A stretch of 64,000 nucleotides of DNA from Deltaproteobacteria bacterium GWB2_55_19 (lineage in GTDB: Bacteria; Desulfobacterota; GWC2-55-46). The stretch lies in the NCBI GenBank assembly GCA_001797465.1, contig MGPQ01000005.1, positions 95,032 through 159,031 of the forward strand, in the 5' to 3' direction. Below the pieces are notes generated by a model. That model was not told the DNA's origin, ran no database searches, and saw only the letters and a program-made list of their open reading frames with translations. Below are positions 19,223 through 45,842 of this stretch, piece by piece; the first letter of the stretch is position 1; every line of letters starts with the position of its first letter. The translations under genes and the position numbers were made by a program.

Positions 19223-19327
19223 TAAAAAAAAGCCTTTTAAAGGGATGCCGCCAGAAAAAGGCTGTTCCCTGTAAAAAGCTTTATGTTCGTTGGCCTACTG
19301 AAAAAACTATCTACATGTATATTACTT
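19223..19327 (-). repeat. conserved intergenic element, copy 1 (degenerate hairpin + 45-nt core)
   Basis: The core GCTTTATGTTCGTTGGCCTACTGAAAAAACTATCTACATGTATATTAC is shared with 8 other copies. Confidence 0.7.
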
Positions 19328-19340
19328 TTGACAGCCTGCC

Positions 19341-19369
19341 TTGAATTTCGGATTGAAAGGTAATATCAT
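19341..19369 (+). promoter_or_regulatory. candidate sigma70 promoter (TTGAAT-17-TATCAT) for the plus-strand ORF
   Basis: The hexamers have 17-nt spacing. An AAGAGG RBS follows before the ATG at 19393. Confidence 0.3.
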
Positions 19370-19392
19370 TGCATTAAGCTTAAGAGGACCGT

Positions 19393-19653
19393 ATGGCTAC
19401 CGAATATAAGACCCCTTTCATGAGCCAGACCGAGATAGAAGGCGATAAGATGCTACGGGACATCGTATGTGCCCTCAATCTCCCGTCCGACCAGGTAAGA
19501 GTCACCAGTTATGACCACTGCAAGACCCTCGAAGAGCTTGAATTTGAAATCTATTCGAATCTTCTTAAAGACGGGACTCCAAAAGAAATCGCTAAAGAGT
19601 TAGCCATGACAAAAGCCAAAGACCTGTGGGACGATTCAGAAGCGCTGAAATAA
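19393..19653 (+). CDS. small hypothetical protein (opposite strand to the block)
   Basis: An 86-aa ORF with an RBS. It is one of only two plus-strand genes inside the 38-kb block, and it abuts intergenic element copy 1. Confidence 0.35.
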   Translation: MATEYKTPFMSQTEIEGDKMLRDIVCALNLPSDQVRVTSYDHCKTLEELEFEIYSNLLKDGTPKEIAKELAMTKAKDLWDDSEALK

Positions 19654-19655
19654 AA

Positions 19656-19690
19656 AAAGGGGATGCTAAAGCATCCCCAAAGTCCTTTTG
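19656..19690 (-). terminator. intrinsic terminator (minus strand)
   Basis: On the minus strand the hairpin GGGGATGCTTTAGCATCCCC is followed by TTTTTTTA. It overlaps the stop codon of 19666..19992. Confidence 0.5.
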
Positions 19691-19992
19691 AGATCAAAGA
19701 TCATGTCCTCAATCTCCCATGTGAACCCCATCGCCGGATCGGACACAATATATCCACCCCACACCCTTTTCTCTACGCGATAGCCGTTATTTACAATTTC
19801 AGCTATCTTGCCATCATCTAACTGACCGGATACTAAAGCTACACGACCCTTTTTTTCCACATCCATCTCTTTCTTTTCCATATCCCTTTTCTTCGTTTTT
19901 CCCACACCTGTCCTGTCAAGGGCGGGGTGTTTGTTGCCTGCTACTTTCATAACAGGCCGGTCGCTACCACACACCCCTGACAGGACGCTCAC
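19666..19992 (-). CDS. hypothetical protein
   Basis: A 108-aa ORF downstream of intergenic element copy 2. Confidence 0.35.
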   Translation of the reverse strand: MSVLSGVCGSDRPVMKVAGNKHPALDRTGVGKTKKRDMEKKEMDVEKKGRVALVSGQLDDGKIAEIVNNGYRVEKRVWGGYIVSDPAMGFTWEIEDMIFDLKRTLGML

Positions 19993-20011
19993 AGGGGACC
20001 GCTTTTTATAT

Positions 20012-20170
20012 AAAAAAGCCCTCTTAAAAGAGGGTGTTGCCTTTAAAAAAAACTCTTTACCGACCGGGCCAGCCGATCCTTTGTAAAGAGTCCTTGAAAA
20101 GACAATACCGCTCGTAAAAGAGGGCTATGTTCGTGTGCCTACTGAAAAAACTATCTACTTACATATTACC
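20012..20170 (-). repeat. conserved intergenic element, copy 2 (core at 20121-20170; leader hairpin/terminator at 20015-20035)
   Basis: The core is GGCTATGTTCGTGTGCCTACTGAAAAAACTATCTACTTACATATTACC. The hairpin CCCTC-TTAAAA-GAGGG has a U-run on the minus strand. Confidence 0.6.
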
Positions 20171-20318
20171 TCCGGAACCGGTTCTTAAAACGGCAGCTGG
20201 TCAATAACACATCTTCTTGAGACTCAGTCTTTCCTGCAGGCGCAATTAGCATGTCCGGCCATCCTTAACAGCTTCAGGTTCACTCATCTCTTCATCTCAT
20301 GCTTATGTTTATCCCGGC

Positions 20319-22529
20319 TTAGAACAGTGCAAACTGTGCCGTTTTGCCGGCCAGGGCCTTCTCAAGGTCGCCATGAGACACCTCCATAACGGACTGCTTC
20401 CTGCCTTTCCTGTCCGAGAGAAAAGTCACCTTAACGACCACGTTCTCGCTTACGCTGGTCTTTACAGCCGACCCATTCATCCCGATTATTTTGTCGCTTT
20501 TTTCGGTAAAGACCGTCTCTCCGCCGTTCATGGACAACTGAGCCTCTATCTCCTTTTTTCTGAAAGCCGCCCATGCGGCCTCAGCCCCCGAGTAGCTGCC
20601 CCCTTCCGCAAGAGCCTTGCCCATCTCTTCTACGATGGACTCCCCGGACGAGGTATACTCGGCAAGACCTTCCGGCAGGTCCCCTTCGACCATCAGGGCC
20701 GTCTCGAGCTTCTTCGCCACCAGGGTAAGCGCGGTCTCCTGCATGGTCTTCCCGTAGCAAAAGAAAAACACCCTTACCGGACGCGTCTGCCCTATCCTCC
20801 AGGACCTCCTTGCGGCCTGCCTGAGCGTAAAGACGTTATAGCCGACCTGATAAAAGACCACCGTTGGGAATTCATAAAGGTCGAGCCCCGTCTTCACAAG
20901 CTCGGGATTAACGAGAAGCATGTCGGAATCTCTTGTGTTTTTGGCTATCCACGCCTCTCTTTTCTTAGGCTCGACTGAAGCGTCAAGGCTCTTTACCCTG
21001 AATCCTGCCTCCTCTAGTATCTTTTGCAGCCTGGGCCTTATATCTCTCGTACCGGTGAAGGTTATATAGCAGAGAACTTTCCTGCTTTCCGACTTCTCCC
21101 TTCTGACGAGATTAACAAGCTCGATTTCTTTAGGCAACAATTCTACTGGAGCAAGAGCCAGTCTCGGGGCGGTAAGCGTGTCGGCTACCAGGCCGGTCTT
21201 ATCCTTTATTTCGATGCACTCAGGGTAAAGAGCGCAAGAATCGGGATACGAAAGAAGCGCCTGAAGCATAGCCGAGAGGGACCTCGTGCCGTATGCTTTG
21301 ATGGCTCCTTTTAAACTATTTTCCAGTTTTTTGTAATGAGTTCCCTGCTCACCTTCATGAAGAGGAACAGTCACCACGTTTTCCTCGTACGGAGGCAGGC
21401 CCTCTATCACGTCGGAAAGCCTTACGAAACAGGACTTGTCGAGAAGATACTCTCCTATCACGACAGGAGAAACGCCCGGCCTTTTCCTCGTCATCTGGCT
21501 CTTCCTGCGTCCACGGCCGTAATAGTTGTCTTCATCGTCGAGTTTTACGACCCTCTCCAGCGTCCCGTAGGTCTCAAGCCACTTCGTTACCTCGTTGTGG
21601 CTGAACCCTGCCCTCTTTACCTCTTCAGGCTCAAGCCGGAAAAGCAGATGAAACAGATCGTCAGCGTACCCTCCGTTCAGGGTCCCGGTAAGGCAAAGAG
21701 ACTTCCTCGCCGCGGAGAGCAAGGCGCCCATGGCCAGACCCTGCAAGGAACTTCCGGCCTTGTAATCGTGGACCTCATCCAAAATTACAAGATCGAAGAA
21801 CCCTTTAAGGTATCTCTTGATGAACTCGGCCGGTGCGAACCTTTTGAGTTTGTTGTCAGCCTGCCATAGAGGACTCTTGCAAACTGAACACTTATATTTT
21901 TTCTTTTCAAGCTGGTCCACGGTCAGGTAGTAATCCTCATTCATGGCCCTGGTCCCGCACACTGAACAGTACGGATCCCCTCTTTTAAGCATGACGGCCG
22001 CCCTCCAACCGTAACCGAGCTTTGCCCGTTCCCTGGAGATCACATATATCTCGTGAACCGATGGACGGCCTTTTGTCCTTCTGAACATCTCAAGAACGCT
22101 GATGGCGTTTTTTACGGCCAAATCACAGACCTGAACGCCGGGGATGACCAGTTTTGTCTCCCTTATCCACTTTTCCACCAGGTGAGTCGGGCATACGACC
22201 AGCGTCCTTAAAGGTTTCGCAGAGACCGCAGCGGCAGAGAGGGCTATCATGGTCTTGCCCGTCCCCATCTCCCCGCAGACGAAAAGCCTCTCCCGGCCCT
22301 TCATGTAAAGACCTACGGCTATTCCCTTGATTATCTCTTCCTGGACCGGAAAGGGCCGTCTTAAAAGGCCCTTTATCCTGCCGCCGTACTCCTCTGCCAT
22401 GGCTGTTGAAGCGGCCGACAGCGGGTCGTAAACGACGGATAGATGATTCGTCGTCTTTTCGCTTAACCGTGAGCCGAATTTCATCAGAAACTCCTTAAGC
22501 TCCATTCCTTTTTCATTATCTGTCTGCAT
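20319..22529 (-). CDS. SNF2-family DEAD/DEAH-box helicase with inserted zinc finger
   Basis: It carries the Walker A GEMGTGKT and a DExH box LVILDEVHDY. The helicase-C region has RRSWRIGQTRPV (the SNF2 motif). A CxxC...CxxC insertion is present. Confidence 0.8.
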   Translation of the reverse strand: MQTDNEKGMELKEFLMKFGSRLSEKTTNHLSVVYDPLSAASTAMAEEYGGRIKGLLRRPFPVQEEIIKGIAVGLYMKGRERLFVCGEMGTGKTMIALSAAAVSAKPLRTLVVCPTHLVEKWIRETKLVIPGVQVCDLAVKNAISVLEMFRRTKGRPSVHEIYVISRERAKLGYGWRAAVMLKRGDPYCSVCGTRAMNEDYYLTVDQLEKKKYKCSVCKSPLWQADNKLKRFAPAEFIKRYLKGFFDLVILDEVHDYKAGSSLQGLAMGALLSAARKSLCLTGTLNGGYADDLFHLLFRLEPEEVKRAGFSHNEVTKWLETYGTLERVVKLDDEDNYYGRGRRKSQMTRKRPGVSPVVIGEYLLDKSCFVRLSDVIEGLPPYEENVVTVPLHEGEQGTHYKKLENSLKGAIKAYGTRSLSAMLQALLSYPDSCALYPECIEIKDKTGLVADTLTAPRLALAPVELLPKEIELVNLVRREKSESRKVLCYITFTGTRDIRPRLQKILEEAGFRVKSLDASVEPKKREAWIAKNTRDSDMLLVNPELVKTGLDLYEFPTVVFYQVGYNVFTLRQAARRSWRIGQTRPVRVFFFCYGKTMQETALTLVAKKLETALMVEGDLPEGLAEYTSSGESIVEEMGKALAEGGSYSGAEAAWAAFRKKEIEAQLSMNGGETVFTEKSDKIIGMNGSAVKTSVSENVVVKVTFLSDRKGRKQSVMEVSHGDLEKALAGKTAQFALF

Positions 22530-22587
22530 TTCCTCCTCCTTTCATAGGGCTTGTAAACCTGAATTTCATAATCTCCTCTCCTTTTCT

Positions 22588-22671
22588 GAAATAAAAAAAG
22601 CCACAGGAAAAGATTCCCGTGGCTTTATGTTCGTGAGACCTACTGAAATAACTACATGTCTGTATATTACC
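22588..22671 (-). repeat. conserved intergenic element, copy 3
   Basis: It has the hairpin GCCACAGGAAAAGATTCCCGTGGC plus the core. A partial second hairpin copy (22686-22707) lies just upstream on the minus strand. Confidence 0.75.
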
Positions 22672-22725
22672 TCTGAAATAAAAAAGGCCACAGGAACCAC
22701 CATGGCCTCGATGTTTTTAAAACTC

Positions 22726-23007
22726 CTACTCAGGATGCTTAAGCGTCCCCATGGGATACCAGCGTGAATCACCATAATCCACCAAAGATCTGATAGGCAC
22801 CCCGTTTACGCTCACGTCATCCATGTAGGAAGAGGCGAAGCTTCTCCATACATTCTTCATACGGCCCTTGCGACCGTTACCGTTGAAGACTATGACCATT
22901 TCTACGAAAGGATTAAAGGACACCAGTATGCCCTTTCCGTATTTCTTATGTTGTACCGTAATGCCTTTTTTCATGTTCTCCTCTCCTAAAACCCGTCCCC
23001 CCAGCAC
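22726..23007 (-). CDS. hypothetical protein
   Basis: A 93-aa ORF whose start is uncertain. Confidence 0.3.
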   Translation of the reverse strand: MLGGRVLGEENMKKGITVQHKKYGKGILVSFNPFVEMVIVFNGNGRKGRMKNVWRSFASSYMDDVSVNGVPIRSLVDYGDSRWYPMGTLKHPE

Positions 23008-23587
23008 CCCTTTTACCTCCTTTCATAATATTATCTTCTCCGGCTTTCTCTCCGCCGGAGATCTTCAGCATGAGATCGCATAGGCGGTCATCCTCAACTG
23101 ATACTTCATATCCGCGGATGCCTCCCCAGCTCCCGAAGACAATGGCATCCTCGTCCTTGATAAGCCTTTCCCTCAACATCGGAAGATACTCCCTTTCATA
23201 AGGCACCTTCTTTTTCTCCAGCCATCTTACGAAGGCTGCCTCTTCCGCCGCGCCAAATGGTCCGAAACCAACCTGTTTCTCCTCCGTTTTTTCGCCAAAC
23301 CAGACGACCCCGTTGTCAAGGTCTTCATCGGACCATATCAGCATATGTTGTCTGCCCCTCCCTATGGATCTGCCTCTACCGCGTAAAGCCGATGGTCTGT
23401 CAAGTTCATACGCATCAGGCAGCACTTTAACCGGCTTATTCTCAGCCAGAGACGAAAAAACCGCTTTCGTCTGTTGTGGAGACCCGTAGATGGAGATCAA
23501 TATCAAGGATTTATTCCCTCCGGAATCCCGGTAAAGACCGAAATCAGACCTAACCGTGACACCATCGACCTTGAGTGTTTTTATCAT
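22946..23587 (-). CDS. hypothetical protein
   Basis: A 213-aa ORF. Confidence 0.35.
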   Translation of the reverse strand: MIKTLKVDGVTVRSDFGLYRDSGGNKSLILISIYGSPQQTKAVFSSLAENKPVKVLPDAYELDRPSALRGRGRSIGRGRQHMLIWSDEDLDNGVVWFGEKTEEKQVGFGPFGAAEEAAFVRWLEKKKVPYEREYLPMLRERLIKDEDAIVFGSWGGIRGYEVSVEDDRLCDLMLKISGGEKAGEDNIMKGGKRGAGGTGFRRGEHEKRHYGTT

Positions 23588-24601: not shown

Positions 24602-24681
24602 CTCCTTCTTTGAAAAAAAAGAGGGGATAAATATTTATCCCCTCAGCTCTTTACCTTGCCGATCGTTTACCGGTCCGGCAG

Positions 24682-25779
24682 TCAGTTTTTATATTGCTCG
24701 TTCAATGCCGGCTGGGTCATTCGTGAAAGATATGTCTTTAAAGGGTCTTTTCCGTTAAATTCCGGAAAAATGCCCCTGACACGATTCCTCTCAAGAATCC
24801 CCTTGATTATCCTTCCTGCCTCTCTCCCGGGTCCGTCATTGTCCACAGCGACGAACGCCTCTTCAGGCTTCATGCATTTCAAAAGCCTTTCGATTTCAGC
24901 CGCCTGCCCGACACCATTTAAGGCCACCAGTGTAGCATCCTGCAGATCGAACAGATTCTCGCCTGCAAGGGCGTCAAGCACCGATTCCGTAATCAGTAGC
25001 CGTTTTGGGTTTCTCTTGAAGACCCAAAGGGACTTTATCCCGTAACACTTCCTTTTCTTCCTGAAATCGGCTGACATCTCCATGGAAGCCGGGAAATATT
25101 CGCGAAGCTCAAGTCCCCTCAGGTCCGAAGGATACGGCACCGGAATCGTTATATACTTCGTGGAATGCTTGAAATCCACAAAGAGTCTGGCTTCGATCTC
25201 CGGATAATAAGCCAGGCCGCGGTCCGTAAAGTAACTTTTGACCGTGGACCCGGAATCCGGCAGCCTCGCGTGCACCTCGCGCGCATAAAGCGCCTTCTCA
25301 AGCTTTCCGGCAGAAGATTCCTCCTTCCTGTTGTTAGATGGCTCCATGCGTTTTTTCTGCGTTATGCCTCCCCTGTCGTACCAGCCATTAAAACGGGAAA
25401 GTCTGGCAACGGAATCGCTGAACGAATATCCTAGCCTGCGGAGAAGCGCAATGGCATCCCCTCCCGTCCTCAATGCCGACCTGTGATCGAACCAAAGCCA
25501 TACGCCATCCCGGTATGAAACATGGAGCGATGGCGTTTTTTCCTCGCCAAAAGGGCTCAGATAAAACCTGCCGTTTCCGTCAAACGTAACAGGCGTCAGC
25601 CCTAATTCCATCTCAAGAAATGACGGAAGGTCAACGGTCCTGGCAAGATCCAAAGCATTCTCATCTATCATCAAACACCTCCCTTCCGCTTTGCCATGAT
25701 GTCCTCGAATGAAATCGCAGAGGCTCATCAGGCCACTCCTTCTTACAAAAGAAGAAAACCCTAAGTCCTCCACTGTCAA
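24682..25779 (-). CDS. Toprim-domain primase-like protein (DUF3991/TraC-like)
   Basis: The C-terminal Toprim motifs ITESVLDAL and VAVDNDGPGREAG (DxD) are present. Confidence 0.5.
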   Translation of the reverse strand: MTVEDLGFSSFVRRSGLMSLCDFIRGHHGKAEGRCLMIDENALDLARTVDLPSFLEMELGLTPVTFDGNGRFYLSPFGEEKTPSLHVSYRDGVWLWFDHRSALRTGGDAIALLRRLGYSFSDSVARLSRFNGWYDRGGITQKKRMEPSNNRKEESSAGKLEKALYAREVHARLPDSGSTVKSYFTDRGLAYYPEIEARLFVDFKHSTKYITIPVPYPSDLRGLELREYFPASMEMSADFRKKRKCYGIKSLWVFKRNPKRLLITESVLDALAGENLFDLQDATLVALNGVGQAAEIERLLKCMKPEEAFVAVDNDGPGREAGRIIKGILERNRVRGIFPEFNGKDPLKTYLSRMTQPALNEQYKN

Positions 25780-27139: not shown

Positions 27140-27202
27140 TTTCTACCTCCTTTTTTTATGCGTCCGACTTTTGACATATAGTCCTTTACCATCCTTTTTT
27201 TT

Positions 27203-27285
27203 GAATAAAAAAAAGCCACAGGAAAAGCATTCCTATGGCTTTTGTTCGTTGATCTACTGAAAAAACTACATGTCTATATATTACC
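27203..27285 (-). repeat. conserved intergenic element, copy 4
   Basis: It has the hairpin AGCCACAGGAAAAGCATTCCTATGGCT plus the core TTTGTTCGTTGATCTACTGAAAAAACTACATGTCTATATATTACC. Confidence 0.75.
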
Positions 27286-27624
27286 GTGGTTTCGCCAAAT
27301 GGCAAAAGGACATGGAAGGAGCACGGAGCTAACCATTACCTCGACTGCGAGATGCTGAACGCCGGAGCCGCCTATATGCTACAGGTTCACAGGCTGAGGC
27401 CCAAGGGAGTCCCCCGACCAAGCGGCTATCGGACGGAGGGTTATAAACAAGGGGACAGAAATTTAGGGAGGAGGTTTGCCTTGGGAAAACTACTCTATCG
27501 CGTTGACGAGGTTGCGAAAATAATCGCCAGCAGCAGAAGCGGAATCTACGAACTTCTTAAGCGGGGCGAGCTTATCGCCCATAATCCCAGGCTCGGACGC
27601 AAGGGAATTAAGGATAACCGCTGA
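27286..27624 (+). CDS. excisionase/AlpA/MerR-type helix-turn-helix DNA-binding protein (start uncertain, possibly TTG near 27479 after GGGAGGAGG)
   Basis: The C-terminal LYRVDEVAKIIASSRSGIYELLKRGELIAHNPRLGRKGI matches the HTH_17/excisionase family. It lies on the opposite strand from the block and abuts intergenic element copy 4. Confidence 0.45.
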   Translation: MVSPNGKRTWKEHGANHYLDCEMLNAGAAYMLQVHRLRPKGVPRPSGYRTEGYKQGDRNLGRRFALGKLLYRVDEVAKIIASSRSGIYELLKRGELIAHNPRLGRKGIKDNR

Positions 27625-30477: not shown

Positions 30478-30515
30478 AAAAAAAGCCCGAAGGAAACCCT
30501 CGGGCTGATTCATCT
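30478..30515 (-). terminator. intrinsic terminator after dnaN-like gene
   Basis: On the minus strand the hairpin GCCCGAGGGTTTCCTTCGGGC is followed by TTTTTTTCGTATTTTTC. Confidence 0.5.
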
Positions 30516-30585: not shown

Positions 30586-31674
30586 TCAGTTCATTACGGG
30601 CATTATTAGGTTGAAATACCCAGTCGTATCCGCCGGCTTAACGACTATCGCACTGGCCTCGTCCTTAAATTCCAGCCTGACCTTCTCTCCTTCTACAGCC
30701 CTTACCGCTTCGGTCAAGTAGGAAGAGTTGACCTTTATCTTCAGGCTCTCTCCGCTATACTCGGCCTCGGATTCCTCTGTCTCATCGCCTATATTCGAGA
30801 GCGAGGATATGGTCAGGCCCTGCGGATTCATATCGAGTGTCACCATGGAATTCCTGTTCTCGAGTATGATCATCGCGCGTCGCAGCATGGCCATTAATGC
30901 CTCTCTCGACATGACAAGAACCCTGTTGTTTACGCTCTCTCCCGGAACAGCCTTCTTGTAATCCACGAAATCAGCGTGTATCAAGGAGACAACTACCTTG
31001 ATGTTACCGTCTCTCAGAACGAAATAGGTCTTATCCGCCCCGATCATAACGGTTCCTTCCGCCTTTTTAAGAAGGCGCTGGACTTCACGGACACCTGCTT
31101 TCGATATAAAAAGACTGTCTTTCAGCTCTATTGGACCCTCAATACATGCCAGCCTGTAACCATCGGTGGCGACAGCCCTTGCAGCAGTTGTCCCGTCTTT
31201 CTCAAGAAAGAGCCCGTTGATAAAAATCCTGTCATTTGCTATGGGAACCGCGAATACGGTCTTCTCTATCATCCCCCTGAAAGTCTTGCCATCCACCGGA
31301 TACATAGCGCTTTCGTCGATGGAAGGAAAGGAAGGATAATTGTCAGGAACAGGAACCTTTCCGTTGAAAGAGACTCTGGTCTTCTCCGACTTAGCCGTTA
31401 ACTTCGCTTCCTTGGCTGAAAGGGCCACGGAGTCACCCGAAAAAGTCTTCAAAACCTCGTAAAATTTATTGGCATTGACCAGAAATGCACCATCCTTGGC
31501 TATATCTGCCACATCTGTCATAGCAGACAGATAAACACCATCCTTCACGATCTGCACCTTCGCGGTCAGATGGCCAGACGAAGCCTCTAACAACAACTCA
31601 TCGGTATCCCCGACCGTTGATGCCACGATGTCGAGAACGCGCTGTAGTTCCTTTTTGACAACCATTATTTTCAT
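30586..31674 (-). CDS. dnaN: DNA polymerase III beta sliding-clamp homologue (divergent)
   Basis: A 362-aa protein with three-domain clamp architecture. It carries ATDGYRLA and the C-terminal YFNLIMPVMN motif. Confidence 0.7.
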   Translation of the reverse strand: MKIMVVKKELQRVLDIVASTVGDTDELLLEASSGHLTAKVQIVKDGVYLSAMTDVADIAKDGAFLVNANKFYEVLKTFSGDSVALSAKEAKLTAKSEKTRVSFNGKVPVPDNYPSFPSIDESAMYPVDGKTFRGMIEKTVFAVPIANDRIFINGLFLEKDGTTAARAVATDGYRLACIEGPIELKDSLFISKAGVREVQRLLKKAEGTVMIGADKTYFVLRDGNIKVVVSLIHADFVDYKKAVPGESVNNRVLVMSREALMAMLRRAMIILENRNSMVTLDMNPQGLTISSLSNIGDETEESEAEYSGESLKIKVNSSYLTEAVRAVEGEKVRLEFKDEASAIVVKPADTTGYFNLIMPVMN

Positions 31675-31708
31675 CTACTTCCTCCTTTTCTCTAAAAAAC
31701 GCCTGACT

Positions 31709-33292
31709 TCAGGCGATATTTAAGGTTTTGACACCTTTCTTCGTCTTCAGAGTCATGATTCTTTCACTGATATCGATGGAGACAACCTCATGTGGAGAAA
31801 CACCCGCAATTGACAATCCATCCAGCAGGTCGTATATCCTGTACGTCCCGGTGATAGCCATAACGTCCTTCCGTATATCTTCATCGAAGTCATATTTCTG
31901 ACTGTCCCACTGGTCCCCGTCCTCGGAATAGACCCGATTGTCAAAGAAGACGTCAGACACCCCGTAAACATCCTCGGGAGTATCCGCGTAGAAGACATAA
32001 CCGTCACAATAATCCTGGGCTACGGCCACTGCCTTTATGCCCATGTCGGAATCTATGTCGGCCTTGAACCATGTAAGCCGGCCGCAATATTTGCTCTCCG
32101 CATCAGGCACGACTCTAACGGCGCGCTTTCTGTTAAGCGACTTCAGCCATTCAGGACGCCTTTCCGGTAGATTTACGGCCGTTACCGCCCCTTCCGGGAG
32201 GCATACGCCTTCTTCGTCGAATTCGTATGCCTCAATGCCTTCCAGAACCAGCTCTTCGTTAACCGGCAGGGGGTCGCCTCTGCCGATTATGCGGATCTCA
32301 TGGTCCCTGCCTGAGCCATAAGAGCCGTCATGGTGAGGCTCGTATACTTCCACGTAGAACCTGTCGAGGTTGTTAAGCTCATCCTGCGTTCCCAACGCCC
32401 CCATGATTTTCATCCTTTTCTCAAGTTCATGAAAAGGGATCTCCTTCTTAAGGTCGTTAATCGCGGACATGGACTCCTTGACGACCGTATCTCTCACGAA
32501 CTGCCAGAATGCCTCAAGCTTCCCGTCGTGTTTAACAGTCCTACGGTAAGGCAGCACAGGAGTCACCGGAGACCCGTTCACCACGTCCATAACCACGGAT
32601 GGACGCCATCTAAGGTTATGATTTATAGGAATGCCGTACCAGACGACGAACATCTCCCTCACCAGCTTTTCAGGGACATCGTAAAAGGAACAGTCCAGCT
32701 TGATGTATACCGGGTTGGACTCATACATCGTCTTTATGCCGTAGTCGCCAAATTGCTCTTCTGCCTTTTTTTCAGGTAAACGGGTCCCGTTGATTATTAT
32801 GTCTAACGGGAACCACTGGAGCAGTTCCTGATCCAGCACCTTATCTTTCACCTCTGACCTGAGGCGCGCCTCTATGACAAAACCATCAAAGCGCATATCC
32901 GGATTTATGCCTTCCAGCACACTCAGCCTGTATTCATGGTCTACAAGATACCTCTTACAATCAACCCTGACCGTGCCGAACCTGCTCGTGAAGACGACTT
33001 CCTCCGAAATGCTGTAGAGAAAGAACAGGCCCCAGCCGGCTGGCTTTTGGTTCTCTTCGACTTCCTCGGGCCAGTTGGAATCAGCCAGCACAAAAAGGGA
33101 CATTGGGTCAACAGCACCGGAACCGTTATCGATAGTTTTAAGCACTCCGTCCTTCAGCGTTATATTCAGCCCGGTTGCCCCTGAACGGACCGCGTTCTGG
33201 GCTATTTCAACCAACACCGACGAAGGGTGGTCGAAGAAGTAAGGCAGAAGATTAAAAAGCCGCTCCTCGTTTATGGTTTTCTGCAGTTGCAT
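31709..33292 (-). CDS. GHKL/HATPase_c (Bergerat-fold) ATPase, MORC/MutL-like N-domain, unknown C-terminal region
   Basis: An N-box VEIAQNAVRSGAT (E-x3-N-A) and a G1 box IDNGSGA (DxGxG) lie near the N-terminus. The protein is 527 aa. Confidence 0.5.
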   Translation of the reverse strand: MQLQKTINEERLFNLLPYFFDHPSSVLVEIAQNAVRSGATGLNITLKDGVLKTIDNGSGAVDPMSLFVLADSNWPEEVEENQKPAGWGLFFLYSISEEVVFTSRFGTVRVDCKRYLVDHEYRLSVLEGINPDMRFDGFVIEARLRSEVKDKVLDQELLQWFPLDIIINGTRLPEKKAEEQFGDYGIKTMYESNPVYIKLDCSFYDVPEKLVREMFVVWYGIPINHNLRWRPSVVMDVVNGSPVTPVLPYRRTVKHDGKLEAFWQFVRDTVVKESMSAINDLKKEIPFHELEKRMKIMGALGTQDELNNLDRFYVEVYEPHHDGSYGSGRDHEIRIIGRGDPLPVNEELVLEGIEAYEFDEEGVCLPEGAVTAVNLPERRPEWLKSLNRKRAVRVVPDAESKYCGRLTWFKADIDSDMGIKAVAVAQDYCDGYVFYADTPEDVYGVSDVFFDNRVYSEDGDQWDSQKYDFDEDIRKDVMAITGTYRIYDLLDGLSIAGVSPHEVVSIDISERIMTLKTKKGVKTLNIA

Positions 33293-33377
33293 TTAACAAC
33301 CCCCTTTTCTTTTACAATTTTTAATGCCGTTAAAATAAAACCTCGCCTTACGTTTTCTCCATAGTCCTCCTTTTTTT

Positions 33378-33458
33378 GAAATAAAAAAAAGCCACAGGAA
33401 AATTCCTATGGCTTTTTATTCGTTCACCTACTGAAAAAACTACATGTCTATATATTAC
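33378..33458 (-). repeat. conserved intergenic element, copy 5
   Basis: It has the hairpin GCCACAGGAAAATTCCTATGGC plus the core. A 4-codon mini-ORF (MEKT) follows the hairpin on the minus strand. Confidence 0.75.
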
Positions 33459-33472
33459 TTCAGACTACAACT

Positions 33473-34588: not shown

Positions 34589-34597
34589 CTCCGTTTT

Positions 34598-34682
34598 TGA
34601 AATAAAAAAAAGCCACAGGAAAATTCCCGTGGCTTTTATGTTCGTGAGACCTACTGAAAAAACTACATGCCTATATATTACC
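34598..34682 (-). repeat. conserved intergenic element, copy 6
   Basis: It has the hairpin AGCCACAGGAAAATTCCCGTGGCT plus the core. The stop codon of the E1 gene lies inside the core. Confidence 0.75.
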
Positions 34683-35453
34683 TTTGATTCTCTTCCAGGC
34701 TTCGGGGTCGACCGGCAGTGGGTTCACTCTCATCGACTTGAGGTCGATAAAGCACCCGTGATTCTCAAGATGCCCCTGCCTGAAGCCTGTCCAGAGCAAC
34801 TGCACGGCCCAGGATGCGACAATCGTGTTTACCAGCAGGTCCTGATGTTCCAGAGCCACTGCAAGCGAACACGAGGGGCCCTGGGCCTTTTCCTTAACTT
34901 TCGTAAGATCATAAAGTTCGTCTACAGACGGCAAAACTGCTACAGCGTCTCTCCCTGGCGGCTGCGGTATATCCTTGAGAGACCCCAGTATCACCTGGCC
35001 AGTATCCCTTGTATTCCCAGTGTCGAGCCAGTAAAGACAGTGCGAGTCCAAACGGGCTGCCCTCCCGATAACCGTACGAGCCCTGGCCGAATCCACGGCG
35101 GATATCAGGATTGACGGTCGCACAGTATCGTCCGACCTGGAGCCATCGAAGGCGAAGGGACAGGCCTTCCAGGAGAACCCCATGAACTGGTTTATTTTAG
35201 TTACCGAGACCACCGCCTTGTTCCGTCCGACATCGAGCGGGGAGAAGTTCTGCCGCGCGATATTGGCTTCGCTAACATTGTCGTCGTCAAAAACCGACAC
35301 ATTCAGGCCGGGATGCCTTAACTGACATAGGGCGTAATGGAGCCTTGCCAGCCCGGTAAGTATCTGGCTACCGGTGCCGCCGCAACCTACAAGCGCGACA
35401 TAAACAGGTCCATCGGCTGCGGTTATCTCTTTATGCAGATAGTGTTTTTTCAT
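34671..35453 (-). CDS. ThiF/MoeB-family E1-like ubiquitin-activating enzyme homologue
   Basis: The nucleotide-binding Gly loop YVALVGCGGTGSQI is present. The 260-aa size fits a minimal E1. Confidence 0.75.
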   Translation of the reverse strand: MKKHYLHKEITAADGPVYVALVGCGGTGSQILTGLARLHYALCQLRHPGLNVSVFDDDNVSEANIARQNFSPLDVGRNKAVVSVTKINQFMGFSWKACPFAFDGSRSDDTVRPSILISAVDSARARTVIGRAARLDSHCLYWLDTGNTRDTGQVILGSLKDIPQPPGRDAVAVLPSVDELYDLTKVKEKAQGPSCSLAVALEHQDLLVNTIVASWAVQLLWTGFRQGHLENHGCFIDLKSMRVNPLPVDPEAWKRIKGNI

Positions 35454-39221: not shown

Positions 39222-39244
39222 CCACCTCCTTTTTGATTTTCTTC

Positions 39245-39328
39245 GAAATAAAAAAAGCCACAGGAAAAAACTTCCCATGGCTTTATGTTCGTGATACCTA
39301 CTGAAAAAACTACATATCTATATATTAT
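39245..39328 (-). repeat. conserved intergenic element, copy 7
   Basis: It has the hairpin AGCCACAGGAAAAAACTTCCCATGGCT plus the core. Confidence 0.75.
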
Positions 39329-39336
39329 CTCTTTTA

Positions 39337-41541: not shown

Positions 41542-41805
41542 CTACGGATACCAGTCAAAATGACAACCACAGAGATTCCCATTCTCCACCTCCACCATTA
41601 CCTTCCCAGGAAAGCTCAACTCTGCATGGAAATAATGGGAATTAAATCTCCCAGCCCCTGTCTCGTCGTGCCTGGCGCATGGATAGTAGTACCCGATCCT
41701 GCCCCCAAACGCAGGCAGGAATTCCCTGCTTAGCCATTCCCTCAGGCTACCTTCTATTTTTCTCTCTATTATTCTGAATGTCTCAATCATCAAACCTCCT
41801 TGCAA
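41542..41805 (-). CDS. hypothetical protein (87 aa)
   Basis: An ORF with an AAGGAGG RBS. Confidence 0.35.
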   Translation of the reverse strand: MQGGLMIETFRIIERKIEGSLREWLSREFLPAFGGRIGYYYPCARHDETGAGRFNSHYFHAELSFPGKVMVEVENGNLCGCHFDWYP

Positions 41806-41957
41806 CTCAAAAGCCGATCCGGGTGGTTATAACAAAACCCATAAACAGTAAACCTATCAGAATGCACCCGGCTGCAAAAATCTCAAGAGTTAGCAATGCC
41901 AAATTACGACCTCCTTTCTTTATATTTAAGTTATTTGCCGCCTTCTTTTTGTTTTCA

Positions 41958-42041
41958 TGAAATAAAAAAAGCCACAGGAAAAGTTCCCGTGGCTTTATGT
42001 TCGTAAGACCTACTGAAAAAATTACATGTCTATATATTACC
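41958..42041 (-). repeat. conserved intergenic element, copy 8
   Basis: It has the hairpin GCCACAGGAAAAGTTCCCGTGGC plus the core. A possible 31-codon hydrophobic small ORF (TTG start after AAGGAGG) follows on the minus strand at about 41917-41822. Confidence 0.75.
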
Positions 42042-42046
42042 TGCTT

Positions 42047-43222
42047 TTACACCGCCAAGGCTTCGGCCCGCTGTGTCTCTTCGCAAACATCCTCCCCATG
42101 TTCAAGCAGAGCGAGCTTCTTGAAAGCGCCTTCCGGAAGGTCTTCTCCTACCGTCTCGGCCCACTTCCTCAACTTATCGTCGAGGGAGGCAAGCCTTGAG
42201 ATACCCTCGGCCCTAACCCTCTGCCTGGGGACCACCGTCTTTTCTATCTTTATTTCGGCGGCTCCCATGGCTGCAAGCTTTTCCTTCAGGACCTTTTCAT
42301 CCACCATATGCACCTCTTCCTCCGATACCTGATATCTGAGCCGCACGCAAGCCCCTTCAGGGACATGCTCCAGAACATCAGGAGAAGGCGGGGCATCACA
42401 GTCTACCGTCACCATCTCTCTTGCGGGCGTCTTTATGAACCGGGAGGCTACCTTTCTGGCCTCGAAGCTATGTATCCAGAACCCCTTGTCCTCTGCCTCG
42501 CCAAAGTTCAGGCGTGTTATAGAGCCGGAGTAAAAGACCTCCCCCCAATTTTGAGCCTTATGAATATGGCCGAGGCAGACAAGGTCAGCCGCTGCCATCC
42601 GCAGGTCCCCAACACCGAGTTCCACTTCCCTGCCTACCATCTGCTGTCCAGTGGAAAGTATAGCGCCGGTCACGCTCAGATGACCGACAAGCACAGTCGG
42701 GATGTTCATTCTCACCCTTGTGTTGACCTCGCCCCAGCCCCTCAGGACATCGCGCATCAGCTCCACCGTGTTGAACGAAGTCTCGGAAAGGCTCCCTTTG
42801 TAAAAAGCCGCAATGGAAGCCTTGGAAACCGACGGCAGACACGAAAAAAGAGCTCCAGCATCCCCGGGAACAGTGCCGTTATACTTAATGAACCCCCTTG
42901 CAGTCAAAAGAACCTGCTCGGGCGCCTCTGATATATAGACCCTCTCGTTTTCAAAGAACTTGAGGGTCTGTCCGTCATGAGAAGGCGTGCCCTTTACGAT
43001 AAGAACCGGAGCAGTCCTCGAGAGTCGGCGTATATACCGGTCCGCAGTGAGAAAGGCCGGACTGTCATAGGTCTGCCTCTCATCGAATATATCTCCGGCT
43101 ATTACGATCGCATCCGGCCTGACAGACGATTCAGCCCTTTTTGCTGCAAAATCGACGCATTTTTCTATCTCCGCAAGCAGGTCGTTCCTGAAGTGGATAT
43201 CCCCTAAGTGTAAAATCATCAT
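42047..43222 (-). CDS. sbcD: SbcD/Mre11-like metallophosphoesterase nuclease (start at MMILHLGDIHF)
   Basis: The calcineurin-like motifs LHLGDIHF and IAGDIFDE are present. It is paired with sbcC. A GGGAGA RBS lies before the internal ATG at 43222. Confidence 0.8.
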   Translation of the reverse strand: MMILHLGDIHFRNDLLAEIEKCVDFAAKRAESSVRPDAIVIAGDIFDERQTYDSPAFLTADRYIRRLSRTAPVLIVKGTPSHDGQTLKFFENERVYISEAPEQVLLTARGFIKYNGTVPGDAGALFSCLPSVSKASIAAFYKGSLSETSFNTVELMRDVLRGWGEVNTRVRMNIPTVLVGHLSVTGAILSTGQQMVGREVELGVGDLRMAAADLVCLGHIHKAQNWGEVFYSGSITRLNFGEAEDKGFWIHSFEARKVASRFIKTPAREMVTVDCDAPPSPDVLEHVPEGACVRLRYQVSEEEVHMVDEKVLKEKLAAMGAAEIKIEKTVVPRQRVRAEGISRLASLDDKLRKWAETVGEDLPEGAFKKLALLEHGEDVCEETQRAEALAV

Positions 43223-43376
43223 TTCTTTGTCTCCCTCATAAGTTTTTCCCATGCCACCGCAAGCCTCTTGGAATGAACCGATGAGACCCAAAACCATATA
43301 ATACTGCGGTCTGCACCAGGATCTGAGAATCGGGATAGTACGCTCCTGAGTTTTTTTAGCATAACGGCTCCATACG

Positions 43377-44270
43377 TCAGGCCGCCGCGGTTGTCGAGTT
43401 ACTACCGATAGAGACTGAAGGCTCCACTAACCCGATGAGCCTATCGGAAATCTTCCGCATCTTTTCCCCAGCCGAAAGAACCTCCTTCATCTCCCCTCTG
43501 GCCCAACTGGCGATGTATGGGACCGAATAGCCCGAAGAATTGAGGCCGAAATGGGCCGAGACAATATAGGCGGCTCCCTCGGCGATCAGTTCTTCGCGGT
43601 TCCGGTCGATTCCGGCTTTCCCGTTCTCCTCCAAAGACAGATGATGCGCAAGCTCGTGAAGAAGCGTCTTACATCTCTGCTCGGACGTAAGGGCGTCGGA
43701 TAGAACTATCTTCTTTTCTTTCGGCAGATAGTACCCGTTCGAATCTCCGATTATTTCTTCGTAATCAACCGGCACTGGCGAAGCCCCAAGAATCCTCTTG
43801 AAAAGATCCTCGGCATCGCCGATGTCCATGCATGGCCTTCCGATCTCAAGCTCCGGAAGCGGTTTCCCTTCGGTCTGGGAAACGTCAAAGACGTAGACGC
43901 CCTTAAAGCCAGCCAAAGTCTGCATTTCCTTTCCCTGAGCCGATTCAGTCGCTTCAACCGATTCGGCCGTTACATCAGGGCCAGAGTTTTCATCCGACTT
44001 GACAGCCTTCTTTACTTTCTTGAGAAAAGGCGCGAAAATCATAATCCCTTTCTCTCCTTTCCTTACAGTCCTGCCCAACGAGTTCCAGAACCTCATACCG
44101 GCGACCCGTGTGGCATTGGGGCGTTGCGTCCAGATTAGCAGGACATTCCCGAAGCTGTACTTTCTGAACTTTGACGAAAAGCGTAGAAAGTCCGTGAAGC
44201 TTTTGGACTCGATGAGCTTTTTAACCCCTTCCAGGAGTTTTTCCTGATATTCCTTGACCTTAATTACCAT
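43377..44270 (-). CDS. ardC: ArdC-like antirestriction protein (ssDNA-binding N-domain + HExxH metalloprotease C-domain)
   Basis: The ArdC-N pattern YSFGNVLLIWTQ..ATRVAGMRFWNSLGRTVRKGEKGIMIFAP is present. The C-terminus has LLHELAHH. Confidence 0.75.
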   Translation of the reverse strand: MVIKVKEYQEKLLEGVKKLIESKSFTDFLRFSSKFRKYSFGNVLLIWTQRPNATRVAGMRFWNSLGRTVRKGEKGIMIFAPFLKKVKKAVKSDENSGPDVTAESVEATESAQGKEMQTLAGFKGVYVFDVSQTEGKPLPELEIGRPCMDIGDAEDLFKRILGASPVPVDYEEIIGDSNGYYLPKEKKIVLSDALTSEQRCKTLLHELAHHLSLEENGKAGIDRNREELIAEGAAYIVSAHFGLNSSGYSVPYIASWARGEMKEVLSAGEKMRKISDRLIGLVEPSVSIGSNSTTAAA

Positions 44271-44368
44271 CCTCTCCTCCTTTCAAAACAAAGCCCCGGA
44301 AACCATGAGGAACCAAAAGGTTCAAGGGTCTTCCAGGGCTGTAAGTTAAAAATCGGGTGATGCGTCCT

Positions 44369-45016
44369 TTACTCGTCGACCAGATGTATCGGCGCTCCTT
44401 CTGCAAGGGCTTTCTTCACCCTGTCGTCCGCCATTTTGTTTTCAGGCATGACATACTCGAAATGGGCAAAGGGCAGCCAGAGAAAAGTTCCAGCCGAATA
44501 CTTGGGCCGGTAATTGTTCACCATCCGCGGCACGTTATAGGTGGTAGATCCGATTTTTCTAAAGTATTTTTCGTCCTGAAGTTCAGCATCGACAAAGAAG
44601 TAAAGGCTTCGTAAGCAGAACTCCCCACCCTTTTCGTGCGTGGGTATGTCTTTCGGACACCGGTCGACAGACTCCTTTGTTTCATCGACAAGAGCTTTTG
44701 GATGTATGAAAAACATCCTCGACTGAAACGGTGTCACTCCGGACCAGTCGAAATTGACAGGTACCCTTTTAGATACCCCGAGATACCTCGTCTCCTCGAT
44801 GAAATCCGGACAGAAGGGATAGAACTCCTGCCCGACCCAGAATATGAGGTCCTTGACGCCGTTTCTCTCCTGCACCAGAGGGGCCCTGAAAGGGTCGCCG
44901 TTATACGGCAGCGGCGGGTCAATCAGAAAATGCTCGATAGGCTCGCCGTATGGAGAAGTGCCACAACAGGCATATAGACCTCCTTTTACCCTCTTTCCGC
45001 ATCCTCTCGTCGTCAT
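44369..45016 (-). CDS. hypothetical protein (215 aa)
   Basis: An ORF that overlaps the parB-like stop by 4 nt. Confidence 0.35.
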   Translation of the reverse strand: MTTRGCGKRVKGGLYACCGTSPYGEPIEHFLIDPPLPYNGDPFRAPLVQERNGVKDLIFWVGQEFYPFCPDFIEETRYLGVSKRVPVNFDWSGVTPFQSRMFFIHPKALVDETKESVDRCPKDIPTHEKGGEFCLRSLYFFVDAELQDEKYFRKIGSTTYNVPRMVNNYRPKYSAGTFLWLPFAHFEYVMPENKMADDRVKKALAEGAPIHLVDE

Positions 45017-45729
45017 GAATATTGGACCTCCTTTTTCAAAAATCCCCTTATTACGTCCACGGCGTTCTTTACATCTTCCGACAGTGGATGACCGGTTGAC
45101 ATCTTCGCGACCACCAACTCAAAGTCCAAAACCAGCTGATCGCACCCTTCCTCAACCGGAATCAGCGAGAGTAACGATGAAAGATTATGCTTAACCTTCC
45201 TCTGGTGCACATCCTCTTTCGTAATCTCTCCACTTAAGACGAGCTCCTTCTGAGCCTCTTTCGGCAACCGAGAAAGCTCAAAGGCGGTCGATGCGTTGAC
45301 CTCCCCCGATTTGACCTTGTTGAGCGCCTCTTTGCAAAGGTTCAACAGCCTAAAGTGCTTCTTGAGCTGCGTCCTGGAAAGACACAGCCTGTCGGCTATC
45401 TCCTGCTGCGTATAGCCGGACTTGATACAGAGCCTGATCTTATCGACTTCGTAAGCCAGGTTCGGTGACCGTTGAAGGTTCAACATCACCCCGAGAAGAT
45501 CAGAGTCATTCTCCCCTTCCTCCATGATTATCGCCGGGACCGTCTCAAGACCAAGATTCCTTGCGGCCTGGATCCTGCGGCGCCCATCGATAACCTCATA
45601 CCCATGCCCGTTTTTGTTGATCATTATTGGAACCCTGATACCGACTTCCTTGATGCTCTCTACAAACTTCGTTCCGGGCAGACACGTCTCAGTTCTTATG
45701 TCCACTACGTTGACTTCCCTTACCTCCAT
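45013..45729 (-). CDS. ParB/Spo0J-like nuclease-fold DNA-binding protein
   Basis: The ParB N-domain GRRR motif (VIDGRRRIQAA) is present. It is the first gene after the most upstream intergenic element copy. Confidence 0.7.
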   Translation of the reverse strand: MEVREVNVVDIRTETCLPGTKFVESIKEVGIRVPIMINKNGHGYEVIDGRRRIQAARNLGLETVPAIIMEEGENDSDLLGVMLNLQRSPNLAYEVDKIRLCIKSGYTQQEIADRLCLSRTQLKKHFRLLNLCKEALNKVKSGEVNASTAFELSRLPKEAQKELVLSGEITKEDVHQRKVKHNLSSLLSLIPVEEGCDQLVLDFELVVAKMSTGHPLSEDVKNAVDVIRGFLKKEVQYS

Positions 45730-45758
45730 ACTCCTTACACCTCCTTTTTGTGGTTTTT

Positions 45759-45842
45759 AAAATAAAAAAAGCCACAAGAACGAATTCTCGTGGCTTTTGT
45801 TCGTAAAGGCCTACTGAAAAAATTACATACTCATATATTACC
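45759..45842 (-). repeat. conserved intergenic element, copy 9 (most upstream)
   Basis: It has the hairpin GCCACAAGAACGAATTCTCGTGGC plus the core TTTTGTTCGTAAAGGCCTACTGAAAAAATTACATACTCATATATTACC. Confidence 0.7.

Follow-up and report, generated by a model that had tools for sequence, protein, structure and literature searches.

Nine copies of a conserved intergenic cassette, each joining an asymmetric core to an intrinsic terminator, were identified on the minus strand of a 64,000-nucleotide (nt) stretch of DNA from Deltaproteobacteria bacterium GWB2_55_19 (assembly GCA_001797465.1, contig MGPQ01000005.1, positions 95,032 to 159,031; hereafter, the window). The window belongs to a Gram-negative conjugative element of an uncultured groundwater bacterium, with a G+C content of 50%, and a single 27-kb block of it holds all nine copies. 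Our preferred reading, to which we give a probability of roughly 40%, is that the cassettes may serve as conditional "checkpoint" terminators, each with its own loading site for an antitermination factor, and that this factor would most likely be the NusG paralog encoded by the element.

Nine cassettes with a common core, terminator and ribosome-binding site

A covariance model (R1) was built for the cassette and used to scan the window. The repeat finder, direct reading and R1 agreed on nine intergenic cassettes, all in minus-strand (gene) sense, located between 19.2 and 45.8 kb. Their R1 scores ranged from 50 to 99 bits, while the next-best matches in the window fell below 26 bits and were plain terminators only; no cassette was detected by R1 in the remaining 37 kb. 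An earlier interpretation of this DNA made from its letters alone (here, the sequence-only reading) had placed nine copies in one orientation at the same sites and derived a minus-strand consensus from them; the copies were confirmed by all three approaches, and the consensus agrees with our alignment. The cassettes are as follows (all on the minus strand; bits refer to R1 and energies to the hairpins):

c9, 45756..45843, minus strand: 90 bits; -18.5 kcal/mol; U7; before the ParB-like gene (45013-45729)
c8, 41956..42042, minus strand: 99 bits; -19.1 kcal/mol; 5 nt past the SbcD-like stop codon; before an 87-amino acid (aa) gene and the SbcC/SMC-like gene
c7, 39242..39330, minus strand: 93.6 bits; -17.3 kcal/mol; GATAATAT variant; between the SbcC-like gene and the PRTRC module
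c6, 34597..34683, minus strand: 95.2 bits; -19.9 kcal/mol; PRTRC ThiF stop codon (34671-34673) within the core; before a 371-aa gene
c5, 33376..33460, minus strand: 97.2 bits; -19.6 kcal/mol; ribosome-binding site (RBS) opens a 4-codon mini open reading frame (ORF); 527-aa gene starts at 33292
c4, 27200..27286, minus strand: 97.7 bits; before the Gp3-like, primase-like and methyltransferase genes
c3, 22585..22672, minus strand: 95 bits; before the SNF2 helicase gene; a core-less terminator directly upstream
c2, 20000..20171 (R1 match 20094-20171), minus strand: 50.7 bits; intact core, then two different hairpins; -51.7 kcal/mol; U8 and U6
c1, 19217..19327, minus strand: 60.7 bits; intact core; larger hairpin of -23.6 kcal/mol; U8

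On the sense strand the core has the consensus (R)GGTAATAT - 12 nt - TTTTTTCAGTAG - 3-7 nt - ACGAA(Y), which in short form is the asymmetric GGTAATA(T/C)-N11-12-TTTTCAGTAG-N3-7-ACGAA. Downstream of it come 2 to 6 A-rich nt, a 13- to 14-bp hairpin, a run of U7-8, usually ATTTCA, and an A-rich stretch with AGGAGG, giving a unit of 85 to 110 nt. The order of upstream stop codon, core, hairpin with U-run, and RBS proposed previously was thus correct. Every copy has a terminator hairpin of -17 to -24 kcal/mol with U7-8 (about -52 kcal/mol for the double hairpin of c2), and all nine combine a G+C-containing stem-loop with an adjacent sense-strand U-run, as intrinsic terminators do. Copies c1 and c2 had been regarded as degenerate; instead, their cores are intact and only the hairpins have been exchanged for other, larger terminator hairpins that are unrelated in sequence to those of the remaining copies and of the same terminator quality. 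These two copies are mutual closest relatives, and c1 is, by synteny, orthologous to the single cassette behind the SNF2 gene in the related elements L137 and L139. In the window, TTTTCAGTAG with at most one mismatch occurs 16 times (4.1 expected), all nine cassettes included, and GTAATAT occurs 14 times (4.0 expected).

The cassettes are closely fitted between genes. In c5 to c8 the core starts 0 to 8 nt past the upstream stop codon, and the intergenic space at c6 and c7 is 82 to 120 nt. The RBS and start codon, previously said to follow within 10 to 20 nt, were found in such a position in most copies, with the RBS about 10 to 25 nt behind the U-run; the exceptions were (i) c2, which has no good RBS; (ii) c3, c4 and c5, where just a short ORF follows the first start codon (11 codons long in c4, 4 in c5) and the main gene starts 40 to 70 nt beyond; and (iii) c8, where the first long ORF begins about 150 nt downstream. 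The block was found to be co-oriented in general, as described, apart from one plus-strand gene (86 aa, 19393-19653). An ATG-stop mini-ORF in the core, present in all nine window copies, was dropped as a candidate feature when it proved absent from the related elements L014 and L130 and from one copy each in L137 and L139.

The core motifs are invariant and the hairpin fold is selected on the sense strand

The distribution of the cassette was examined in sequence collections. A metagenome scan with a 29-base pattern recovered 12 stretches which, together with three contigs of metagenome-assembled genomes (MAGs), were all syntenic fragments of the same element at 92 to 99% identity. The pattern used for the genome collection specified 18 bases only and gave mostly chance matches; among the matches listed, only L012, L014, L025, L035 and L060 were real. 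Diverged elements with the cassette include L014 and L060 (one copy each, 8 kb of each examined), L130 (three copies) and L137 and L139 (two each); in L014 it heads a block beginning with a 114-aa gene and SbcD. A PLSDB search with the cassette returned chance matches only (about 33 nt, Bacillus plasmids), and an IMG/VR search with the motif pattern returned nothing. At Rfam gathering scores no family was found for the cassette, the sole match in the window being a cobalamin riboswitch; in E-value mode the cassette matched at 14 to 28 bits (compared with cut-offs of 43 to 128), and these below-threshold matches were all terminator-ended small RNAs. On this sequence evidence the cassette is apparently confined to one family of PRTRC-carrying conjugative elements. 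The homology check suggested by the sequence-only reading therefore came out in favor of an element-specific unit, with the outside matches (for the genome collection, among the matches listed) in syntenic copies of one element family and not dispersed as a genome-wide repeat.

To compare copies, 15 distinct sequences from the window, its close relatives L117 and L118, and the diverged elements L014, L060 and L130 were aligned. TAATA, TTTCAGTAG and ACGA are invariant, including in elements with only 50 to 80% protein identity (L014, L060, L130, L137 and L139), while the 11- to 12-nt spacer, the 3- to 7-nt linker and the entire hairpin sequence vary between elements. Each cassette has a single copy of every invariant motif, none of which is palindromic, and the hairpin is the sole dyad. 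Conservation of the hairpin sequence, as claimed earlier, thus holds inside this element only; in L014, L060, L130, L137 and L139 the sequence differs and the pairing is kept. Across the alignment 95% of cells are paired and 8 of the 13 pairs change on both sides, a degree of covariation reached in none of 500 shuffles and approached by no slid register. Two stem pairs are mostly G.U or U.G, which on the opposite strand would be A.C; therefore, the fold appears to be selected on the gene-sense strand, either in the RNA or conceivably in minus-strand DNA. The spacer is homogenized within single elements, as seen for ATAGACATGTAG, shared by six copies of the window, and for ACAAACATAAG, shared by two of three in L130, which points to spread or gene conversion between copies.

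Several terminators without a core leave no room for promoters

The cassettes are not the only terminators of the block. At least six core-less sense-strand terminators lie within it (at about 44.3, 31.70, 30.49, 24.63, 22.70 and 19.67 kb), and another follows ssb at 14.97 kb; they range from -11 to -27 kcal/mol and all have T-runs. With the cassettes included, about 16 sense-strand terminators occur within 27 kb. Those described individually are:

44284..44341, minus strand: core-less terminator-like hairpin; -27.1 kcal/mol; T-rich run, then directly the RBS of the ArdC-like gene
31700..31715, minus strand: short core-less terminator-like hairpin; -11.3 kcal/mol; T6; adjoins the RBS of the dnaN-like gene
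30484..30506, minus strand: core-less terminator after dnaN; then a sigma70-like promoter for the toxin-antitoxin pair
24609..24656, minus strand: core-less terminator; -17 kcal/mol; T8; methyltransferase RBS a few nt on, no promoter room
22674..22709, minus strand: core-less terminator directly before c3; R1 16.7 bits; the same tandem in L137 and L139
14961..14988, minus strand: core-less terminator after ssb, upstream of the transfer operon; -19.2 kcal/mol

Since the RBS directly follows the T-run, the methyltransferase, dnaN-like and ArdC-like genes would be reachable only by read-through. In the view of the Meijer laboratory, the presence of terminators within a conjugation operon is a good indicator of processive antitermination (PMC8955417).

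A minimal NusG paralog heads the transfer operon

A candidate antiterminator is encoded at the head of the type IV secretion system (T4SS)/transfer operon, next to a protein that we term X:

13943..14353, minus strand: minimal NusG paralog, candidate antiterminator; 136 aa, NGN and KOW domains, the NGN domain of about 75 residues
14298..14885, minus strand: protein X; 195 aa; always just upstream of the NusG-like gene

Sequence matches of the 136-aa protein were weak (E = 0.005 for the KOW region against NusG chains of the PDB, and E = 0.002 for a region aligned with the RfaH NGN domain). An AlphaFold2 (AF2) model built from six sequences had a mean predicted local distance difference test (pLDDT) score of 83.7, and when this model was compared with the PDB by Foldseek the top 25 matches were full-length NusG, Spt5 or RfaH, with both domains covered. 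The modeled fold thus confirmed the protein as a true NusG-family paralog. KOW was predicted as beta-strands, in a single model that is uninformative on fold switching. Only five clusters of this tiny family were present among 5.8 billion proteins, and the order of X, the NusG-like gene and the coupling-protein gene is kept down to 46% identity. Both L137 and L139 carry the NusG-like protein and the cassettes. As for protein X, sequence searches gave nothing and no fold could be recognized; it was considered as a sigma-like or DNA-binding factor and set aside on an AF2 model of pLDDT 75 with no PDB fold match at E < 0.03.

Proposed mechanism: checkpoint terminators licensed by the NusG paralog

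We propose that RNA polymerase entering a cassette, either from upstream or from a weak start at GGTAATA, would halt at the hairpin unless it had been made terminator-resistant at the core. The converting factor would most likely be the 136-aa NusG paralog from the head of the transfer operon, which would read the core either as non-template-strand DNA or as nascent RNA, comparable to RfaH at ops and to LoaP, a NusG paralog overcoming intrinsic terminators, in leader RNAs. Polymerase modified in this manner would also pass the core-less terminators inside the modules. As a result, the 27-kb block for replication, maintenance and anti-restriction would be gated by the factor and expressed in an all-or-none fashion, with spurious transcription suppressed. 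Termination, read-through, the acting factor and the motif that it reads, as well as any promoter in the core, are what we infer from the sequence.

Two ideas of the sequence-only reading, a leader terminator that needs an antiterminator and dispersed sites for the NusG-like factor, are combined in this proposal. They are favored by the modeled NusG fold, by the asymmetric strand-specific motif and by the sense-strand terminators without promoter room. The asymmetry of the invariant 10-mer in the core is as expected for single-strand recognition, and this 10-mer contains CAGTAG, which by eye matches five of the six bases of CGGTAG at the center of the RfaH ops element GGCGGTAGCGTG.

Several findings weigh against the proposal. 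The full ops consensus GGCGGTAGnnTG was not found in the core, where only CAGTAG and GGTAATA are present. All nine cassettes are upstream of the NusG-like gene, which also lies behind another terminator and hence would need its own promoter and a reason for early expression. Nine loading sites would seem redundant if polymerase stays modified after one loading, as with RfaH, and the co-occurrence of the NusG paralog and the cassettes may reflect shared ancestry only. In addition, the related element L132 (ENA ERZ27237442 k141_154431, 613-11350; 40% G+C, with a 48% identical homolog of the 371-aa protein) carries seven arrayed cassettes of its own, about 100 nt long and composed of GGAAAATCTAATATCCAATAGACAACCAT, hairpin, U-run and RBS; TAATAT, about 15 nt, terminator and RBS follow one another as in the window layout, but TTTTCAGTAG and ACGAA are missing and so are not required for the basic design. 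Finally, the core-less terminator before c3 and those GGTAATA sites that adjoin Shine-Dalgarno sequences in the transfer region fit a core promoter at least as well as a loading site.

The GGTAATA heptamer recurs at gene starts

No sigma70 -35/-10 pair had been seen in the core, and a -35 scan upstream of TAATAT confirmed this: 12 of 13 cassettes were at background, and c4 alone has a candidate (TTGCCA, spacer 16). The heptamer does not behave as a normal sigma70 -10, because many sites (in L130, L137, L139, L138 and three in the transfer region) have C or A as the sixth base of TAATAT and the other register places G at -11. No convincing fit to sigma54, ECF, sigma28, sigma32, sporulation-sigma or T7-type promoters was seen by eye, and no sigma-like gene was found. 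A normal promoter is present in this host DNA at the toxin-antitoxin pair (TTGATT-17-TACAAT, 30396-30368). Sigma70-like candidates also lie 20 to 140 nt upstream of the first cassettes of blocks, which fits a transcribed core.

The gene strand of 1-46 kb has 12 further RRTAATA sites that are not part of a cassette, and seven of these fall within the 8 to 100 nt upstream of gene starts (at distances of 14 to 95 nt), compared with about 1 expected and 1 to 3 for composition-matched control motifs. The seven are:

3788-3794, minus strand: GGTAATA, 35 nt upstream of the pilin-like gene
4504-4510, minus strand: RRTAATA
5954-5960, minus strand: RRTAATA
6658-6664, minus strand: RRTAATA
14907-14913, minus strand: RRTAATA within GGTAATAT at 14906..14913; 28 nt before the ATG (14885) of the operon of X, the NusG-like gene and the type IV coupling protein (T4CP); TTGCCG-16-TAATAT; candidate -10 or loading site
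15838-15844, minus strand: RRTAATA
23029-23035, minus strand: RRTAATA

The genes behind them are the X/NusG-like/T4CP operon, bPH, DsbA-like, OmpA-like and pilin-like genes, a 123-aa ORF (start 15825) and a 93-aa ORF (start 23007). Although the upstream sequence differs, L139 has retained the heptamers of the X operon and of the bPH, DsbA-like and pilin-like genes, and L137 and L138 have retained that of the X operon. The transfer operon of L139 lies behind a divergent gene, and its promoter must therefore be within the intervening 154-nt gap, the sole conserved part of which begins at GTAATAT. Moderate evidence from sequence thus suggests that the heptamer belongs to an unusual start signal or, alternatively, is a factor-binding site at gene starts, and the first heptamer of the core may be one element of an unusual promoter without a -35.

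Alternative explanations

Somewhat unlikely, in our estimate, is that the cassettes are composite promoter-terminator modules without a dedicated antiterminator, in which the hairpin insulates each module against transcription from upstream, GGTAATA(T) is the -10 of an element-typical, -35-less promoter at which transcription begins anew, a partly leaky leader terminator sets low expression and recombination spreads the copies in the manner of the PeSL elements of T4-type phages. The enrichment of RRTAATA before gene starts, its conservation in orthologous sites and the L139 gap described above all favor such modules, as do (i) the order of terminator, then GGTAATAT, at both 14.9 kb and c3; (ii) the L132 array (family B), which has in common with the window cassette only TAATAT..ATAGACA and the terminator; and (iii) module gains and losses that are bounded by cassettes. 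However, the -35 is at background in nearly all cassettes, neither register of the heptamer fits sigma70, and neither a sigma-like gene nor a sigma-like fold in protein X was found. A promoter about 45 nt before a terminator of -20 kcal/mol with U8 would yield mostly a dead-end RNA of about 70 nt, the relief of which would bring back the antitermination model. The order also differs from that of PeSL, whose stem-loop is upstream of the promoter, whereas that of the cassette is downstream.

A broader proposal, which we hold to be rather improbable, is that the element has its own transcription regime, with -35-less GGTAATA promoters at about 16 gene starts served by host polymerase and an element factor, while in the nine cassettes TTTTCAGTAG would load the NusG paralog that licenses the built-in terminator and the units would double as recombination joints. 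If true, this would be distributed, repeated licensing in place of a single operon-head site.

Action at the RNA level was judged unlikely. Here the cassette would be a 3' untranslated region or leader module for an RNA chaperone (of the Hfq or ProQ/FinO type) or a mark for an endonuclease, and would thereby govern how stable the flanking messages are, as the sequence-only reading had considered, or it would give a trans-acting RNA of about 65 to 70 nt. The internal U6 tract, terminator hairpin and 3' U-tail of the cassette in combination resemble the Hfq-binding module of small RNAs; the hairpin is selected on the sense strand, the sub-threshold Rfam matches are all terminator-ended small RNAs, and the transfer-region heptamers near Shine-Dalgarno sequences could mark processing sites. 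Against this, only the terminator was predicted consistently as structure across diverged copies, with no other RNA structure or alternative antiterminator pairing recurring in the core; no target complementary to the core was found elsewhere in the window; no FinO/ProQ- or Hfq-like gene was seen among the proteins scanned; and the expression of genes behind terminators without promoter room would be left unexplained.

We consider it quite improbable that hairpin and core act as single-stranded DNA during conjugation, i.e., as a priming (ssi) signal or single-strand promoter on the transferred strand, used by the primase, clamp and SSB of the element to synthesize the complementary strand or to express genes early. 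The element does encode a DnaG-like primase, a DnaN clamp, SSB and a DnaC/IstB-like ATPase, all cassettes share one orientation, DNA hairpins tolerate G.T pairs, and plasmid leading regions are known to carry Frpo/ssi elements as repeats. In known leading regions, however, the transferred strand serves as the template of the genes; if this applies here, it is the plus strand that is transferred, and the hairpins there carry A.C mismatches. The 82 to 120 nt available at c6 and c7 is too short for an Frpo-type hairpin of about 300 nt, the stem is without a -35/-10, and the U-run and fixed place before the RBS are features of a terminator.

About as improbable is a dispersed operator array, put forward by the sequence-only reading, at which a ParB-like (KorB-like) or other repressor would block initiation or elongation; this came out slightly behind the conjugation signal. 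The first gene of the block is of the ParB/Spo0J family, and arrays of repressor-controlled promoters are known, both among establishment promoters (Reg576 of p576) and in the IncP KorB system. The invariant motifs, however, are asymmetric single copies in one orientation, no palindromic operator of 13 to 16 bp is among them, and the one dyad, the hairpin, is free to vary in sequence between elements; moreover, the cassette at the head of the L014 block has no ParB homolog in the 8-kb stretch. Most improbable of all is a selfish repeat without regulatory role, since the GTAG motif upstream of an imperfect palindrome, as in repetitive extragenic palindromic (REP) elements, and the high copy number are outweighed by the restriction of the copies to one strand and the intergenic regions of one 27-kb block, by the syntenic setting of every metagenome and MAG match, by three separate motifs invariant across diverged elements and by the lack of any RAYT or IS200-type gene seen. 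Integron attC sites were rejected by inspection: no GTTRRRY-type core sites, spacing over several genes, and no integron integrase nearby.

Element context and module boundaries

On the minus strand the gene order begins with ParB-like, ArdC-like, SbcD- and SbcC-like, PRTRC (E, C, B, A, ThiF), DnaN and a toxin-antitoxin pair; continues with Gp3-like, DnaG-like primase, DUF6094 methyltransferase, SNF2 helicase, ribonucleotide reductase and SSB; and ends with protein X, NusG-like, coupling protein, HD-domain protein and TraL/E/K/B-type genes. The DNA-synthesis toolkit is unusually complete for a conjugative element (all on the minus strand): ribonucleotide reductase with TSCPD at 15870-17915, DnaN at 30586-31674, DnaG-like primase at 24682-25779 and SSB at 15007-15438.

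The cassettes bound gene gains and losses. In L130 a single cassette separates SbcC from a 364-aa gene, whereas in the window c7, the whole PRTRC module and c6 lie between SbcC and the 371-aa gene; and where L137 and L139 have one cassette behind SNF2, the window has c2, a 72-aa gene with a terminator, a convergent 86-aa gene and c1. As near-identical repeats, the cassettes could act as recombination points for such exchanges. In the latter module (19393-19882), the 72-aa gene (minus strand) and the 86-aa gene (plus strand) have a common terminator at 19659-19678, and the 86-aa gene has its own promoter-like TTGAAT-17-TATCAT overlapping a plus-strand GGTAATAT. The 86-aa ORF was tried as a regulator and dropped when no PDB sequence match was found.

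Homology to relatives ends at about 46.1 kb (L118, L124 and L128) or 45.9 kb (L025), with c9 about 70 to 250 nt inside. Beyond this point the neighbors differ, with cytochrome c and metal-efflux genes in the window, radical-SAM and nitronate-monooxygenase-like genes in L124 and a histidine kinase in L025, which places c9 at the edge of the conserved backbone. The segment 45900-46100 probably marks where this backbone ends, or else an integration/cargo junction; no tRNA gene or integration site was found near it.

Other features of the window and its relatives were recorded:

6758-6943, plus strand: cobalamin riboswitch (121.7 bits) in the transfer region, ahead of a 218-aa ORF (7174-7830, plus strand)
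10237-12489, minus strand: 457-aa ORF and IstB-like ATPase between the coupling-protein gene and a 237-aa gene, with no counterpart in L137 or L139; three short repeats in the 457-aa ORF at 11732-11940
60446-61050: tandem duplication of about 300 nt, two copies 70 to 77% identical, within the ORF at 60369-61205
L135, at 4472, 9582, 12765 and 16934: four copies of an unrelated intergenic unit, AACCGAAAAACGAAT.. and a GC-rich hairpin without U-run, upstream of genes

L137 has a 218-aa CbiM-family gene at the position matching the 218-aa ORF of the window, and the riboswitch with this ORF looks like a riboswitch-controlled cobalt-transport cargo gene within the conjugative element. The region at 10237-12489 is possibly an IS21-type insertion. 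No array comparable to that of the window was found in L129, L133, L134, L136 or the PRTRC-carrying Manganitrophus plasmid.

Comparison with known systems

The cassette is not described in the libraries searched, and its new feature is a conserved signal joined to a terminator and an RBS, nine times over. The arrangement combines known ideas, namely terminators in conjugative operons, plasmid NusG paralogs and mobile regulatory cassettes, in a combination that we did not find reported. It bears on how Gram-negative conjugative elements keep tens of kilobases silent yet jointly switchable, and it offers a compact, repeated and easily mutated unit alongside a very small NusG paralog. The covariance model can in addition flag this element family in metagenomes.

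As in the RfaH/ops, ActX (R6K) and PrfaH (IncX3) systems, a NusG paralog is found here at the head of a T4SS operon; ActX and PrfaH are known plasmid paralogs so placed, and PrfaH requires an ops-like site downstream of its own promoter. The short, asymmetric, orientation-specific motif is likewise of the RfaH/ops type, and the proposed purpose, read-through in long horizontally acquired blocks, is the same. Unlike RfaH/ops, the core of the window is without the ops consensus, the protein is much smaller (136 aa, five clusters), and in place of one or two sites there are nine, each joined to its own intrinsic terminator and RBS. RfaH furthermore counters mainly Rho-dependent termination, whereas the terminators of the window are intrinsic. 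Plasmid NusG paralogs are widespread and few have a defined recruitment site; this locus could show whether such a paralog is loaded repeatedly within operons, whether it overrides intrinsic terminators, and which of the three invariant motifs is read.

The proposal for the window also resembles lambda Q at qut-tR', lambda N at nut and the LoaP leaders, where a loading signal lies close before a terminator that modified polymerase passes; unlike in lambda, neither a Q- or N-like gene nor a nut- or qut-like structure is present here, and the signal is repeated nine times. Repeated conserved regions before anti-restriction and establishment genes are shared with the Reg576 promoters of p576 and the Frpo elements of F and IncI. 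However, the Reg576 operators are dual heptamers at normal promoters, a feature absent from the cassettes, and Frpo elements are hairpins of about 300 nt with -35 and -10, whereas the cassettes measure 85 to 110 nt, with 13- to 14-bp stems and no boxes in the stem.

The conAn system of the Gram-positive pLS20 family likewise has many intrinsic terminators in a long co-oriented conjugative block, and its logic is that only licensed polymerase passes and spurious transcripts die (PMC8955417). It consists of a single protein and RNA module at the operon start, whereas in the window nine terminators each have the signal before them, in a Gram-negative host and with a NusG paralog as candidate factor; there was no Pfam or NCBIfam hint of ConAn1/conAn2 among the proteins scanned, with no reference sequences compared. 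The PeSL/PmSL elements of T4-type phages are repeated intergenic units of about 60 to 100 nt with stem-loop, transcription signal, Shine-Dalgarno sequence and start codon (PMC4122927). Like the cassettes, PeSL occur in one orientation and at the borders of gene insertions and deletions (PMC4122927), with the Shine-Dalgarno sequence and ATG at the 3' end. They differ in having a clear sigma70 -35/-10 with the stem-loop upstream, whereas the cassettes have the reversed order, no -35/-10 pair and a conjugative carrier instead of a phage. The cassettes would nonetheless carry the concept of mobile regulatory cassettes as drivers of modular shuffling, known from T4-type phages, over to conjugative elements.

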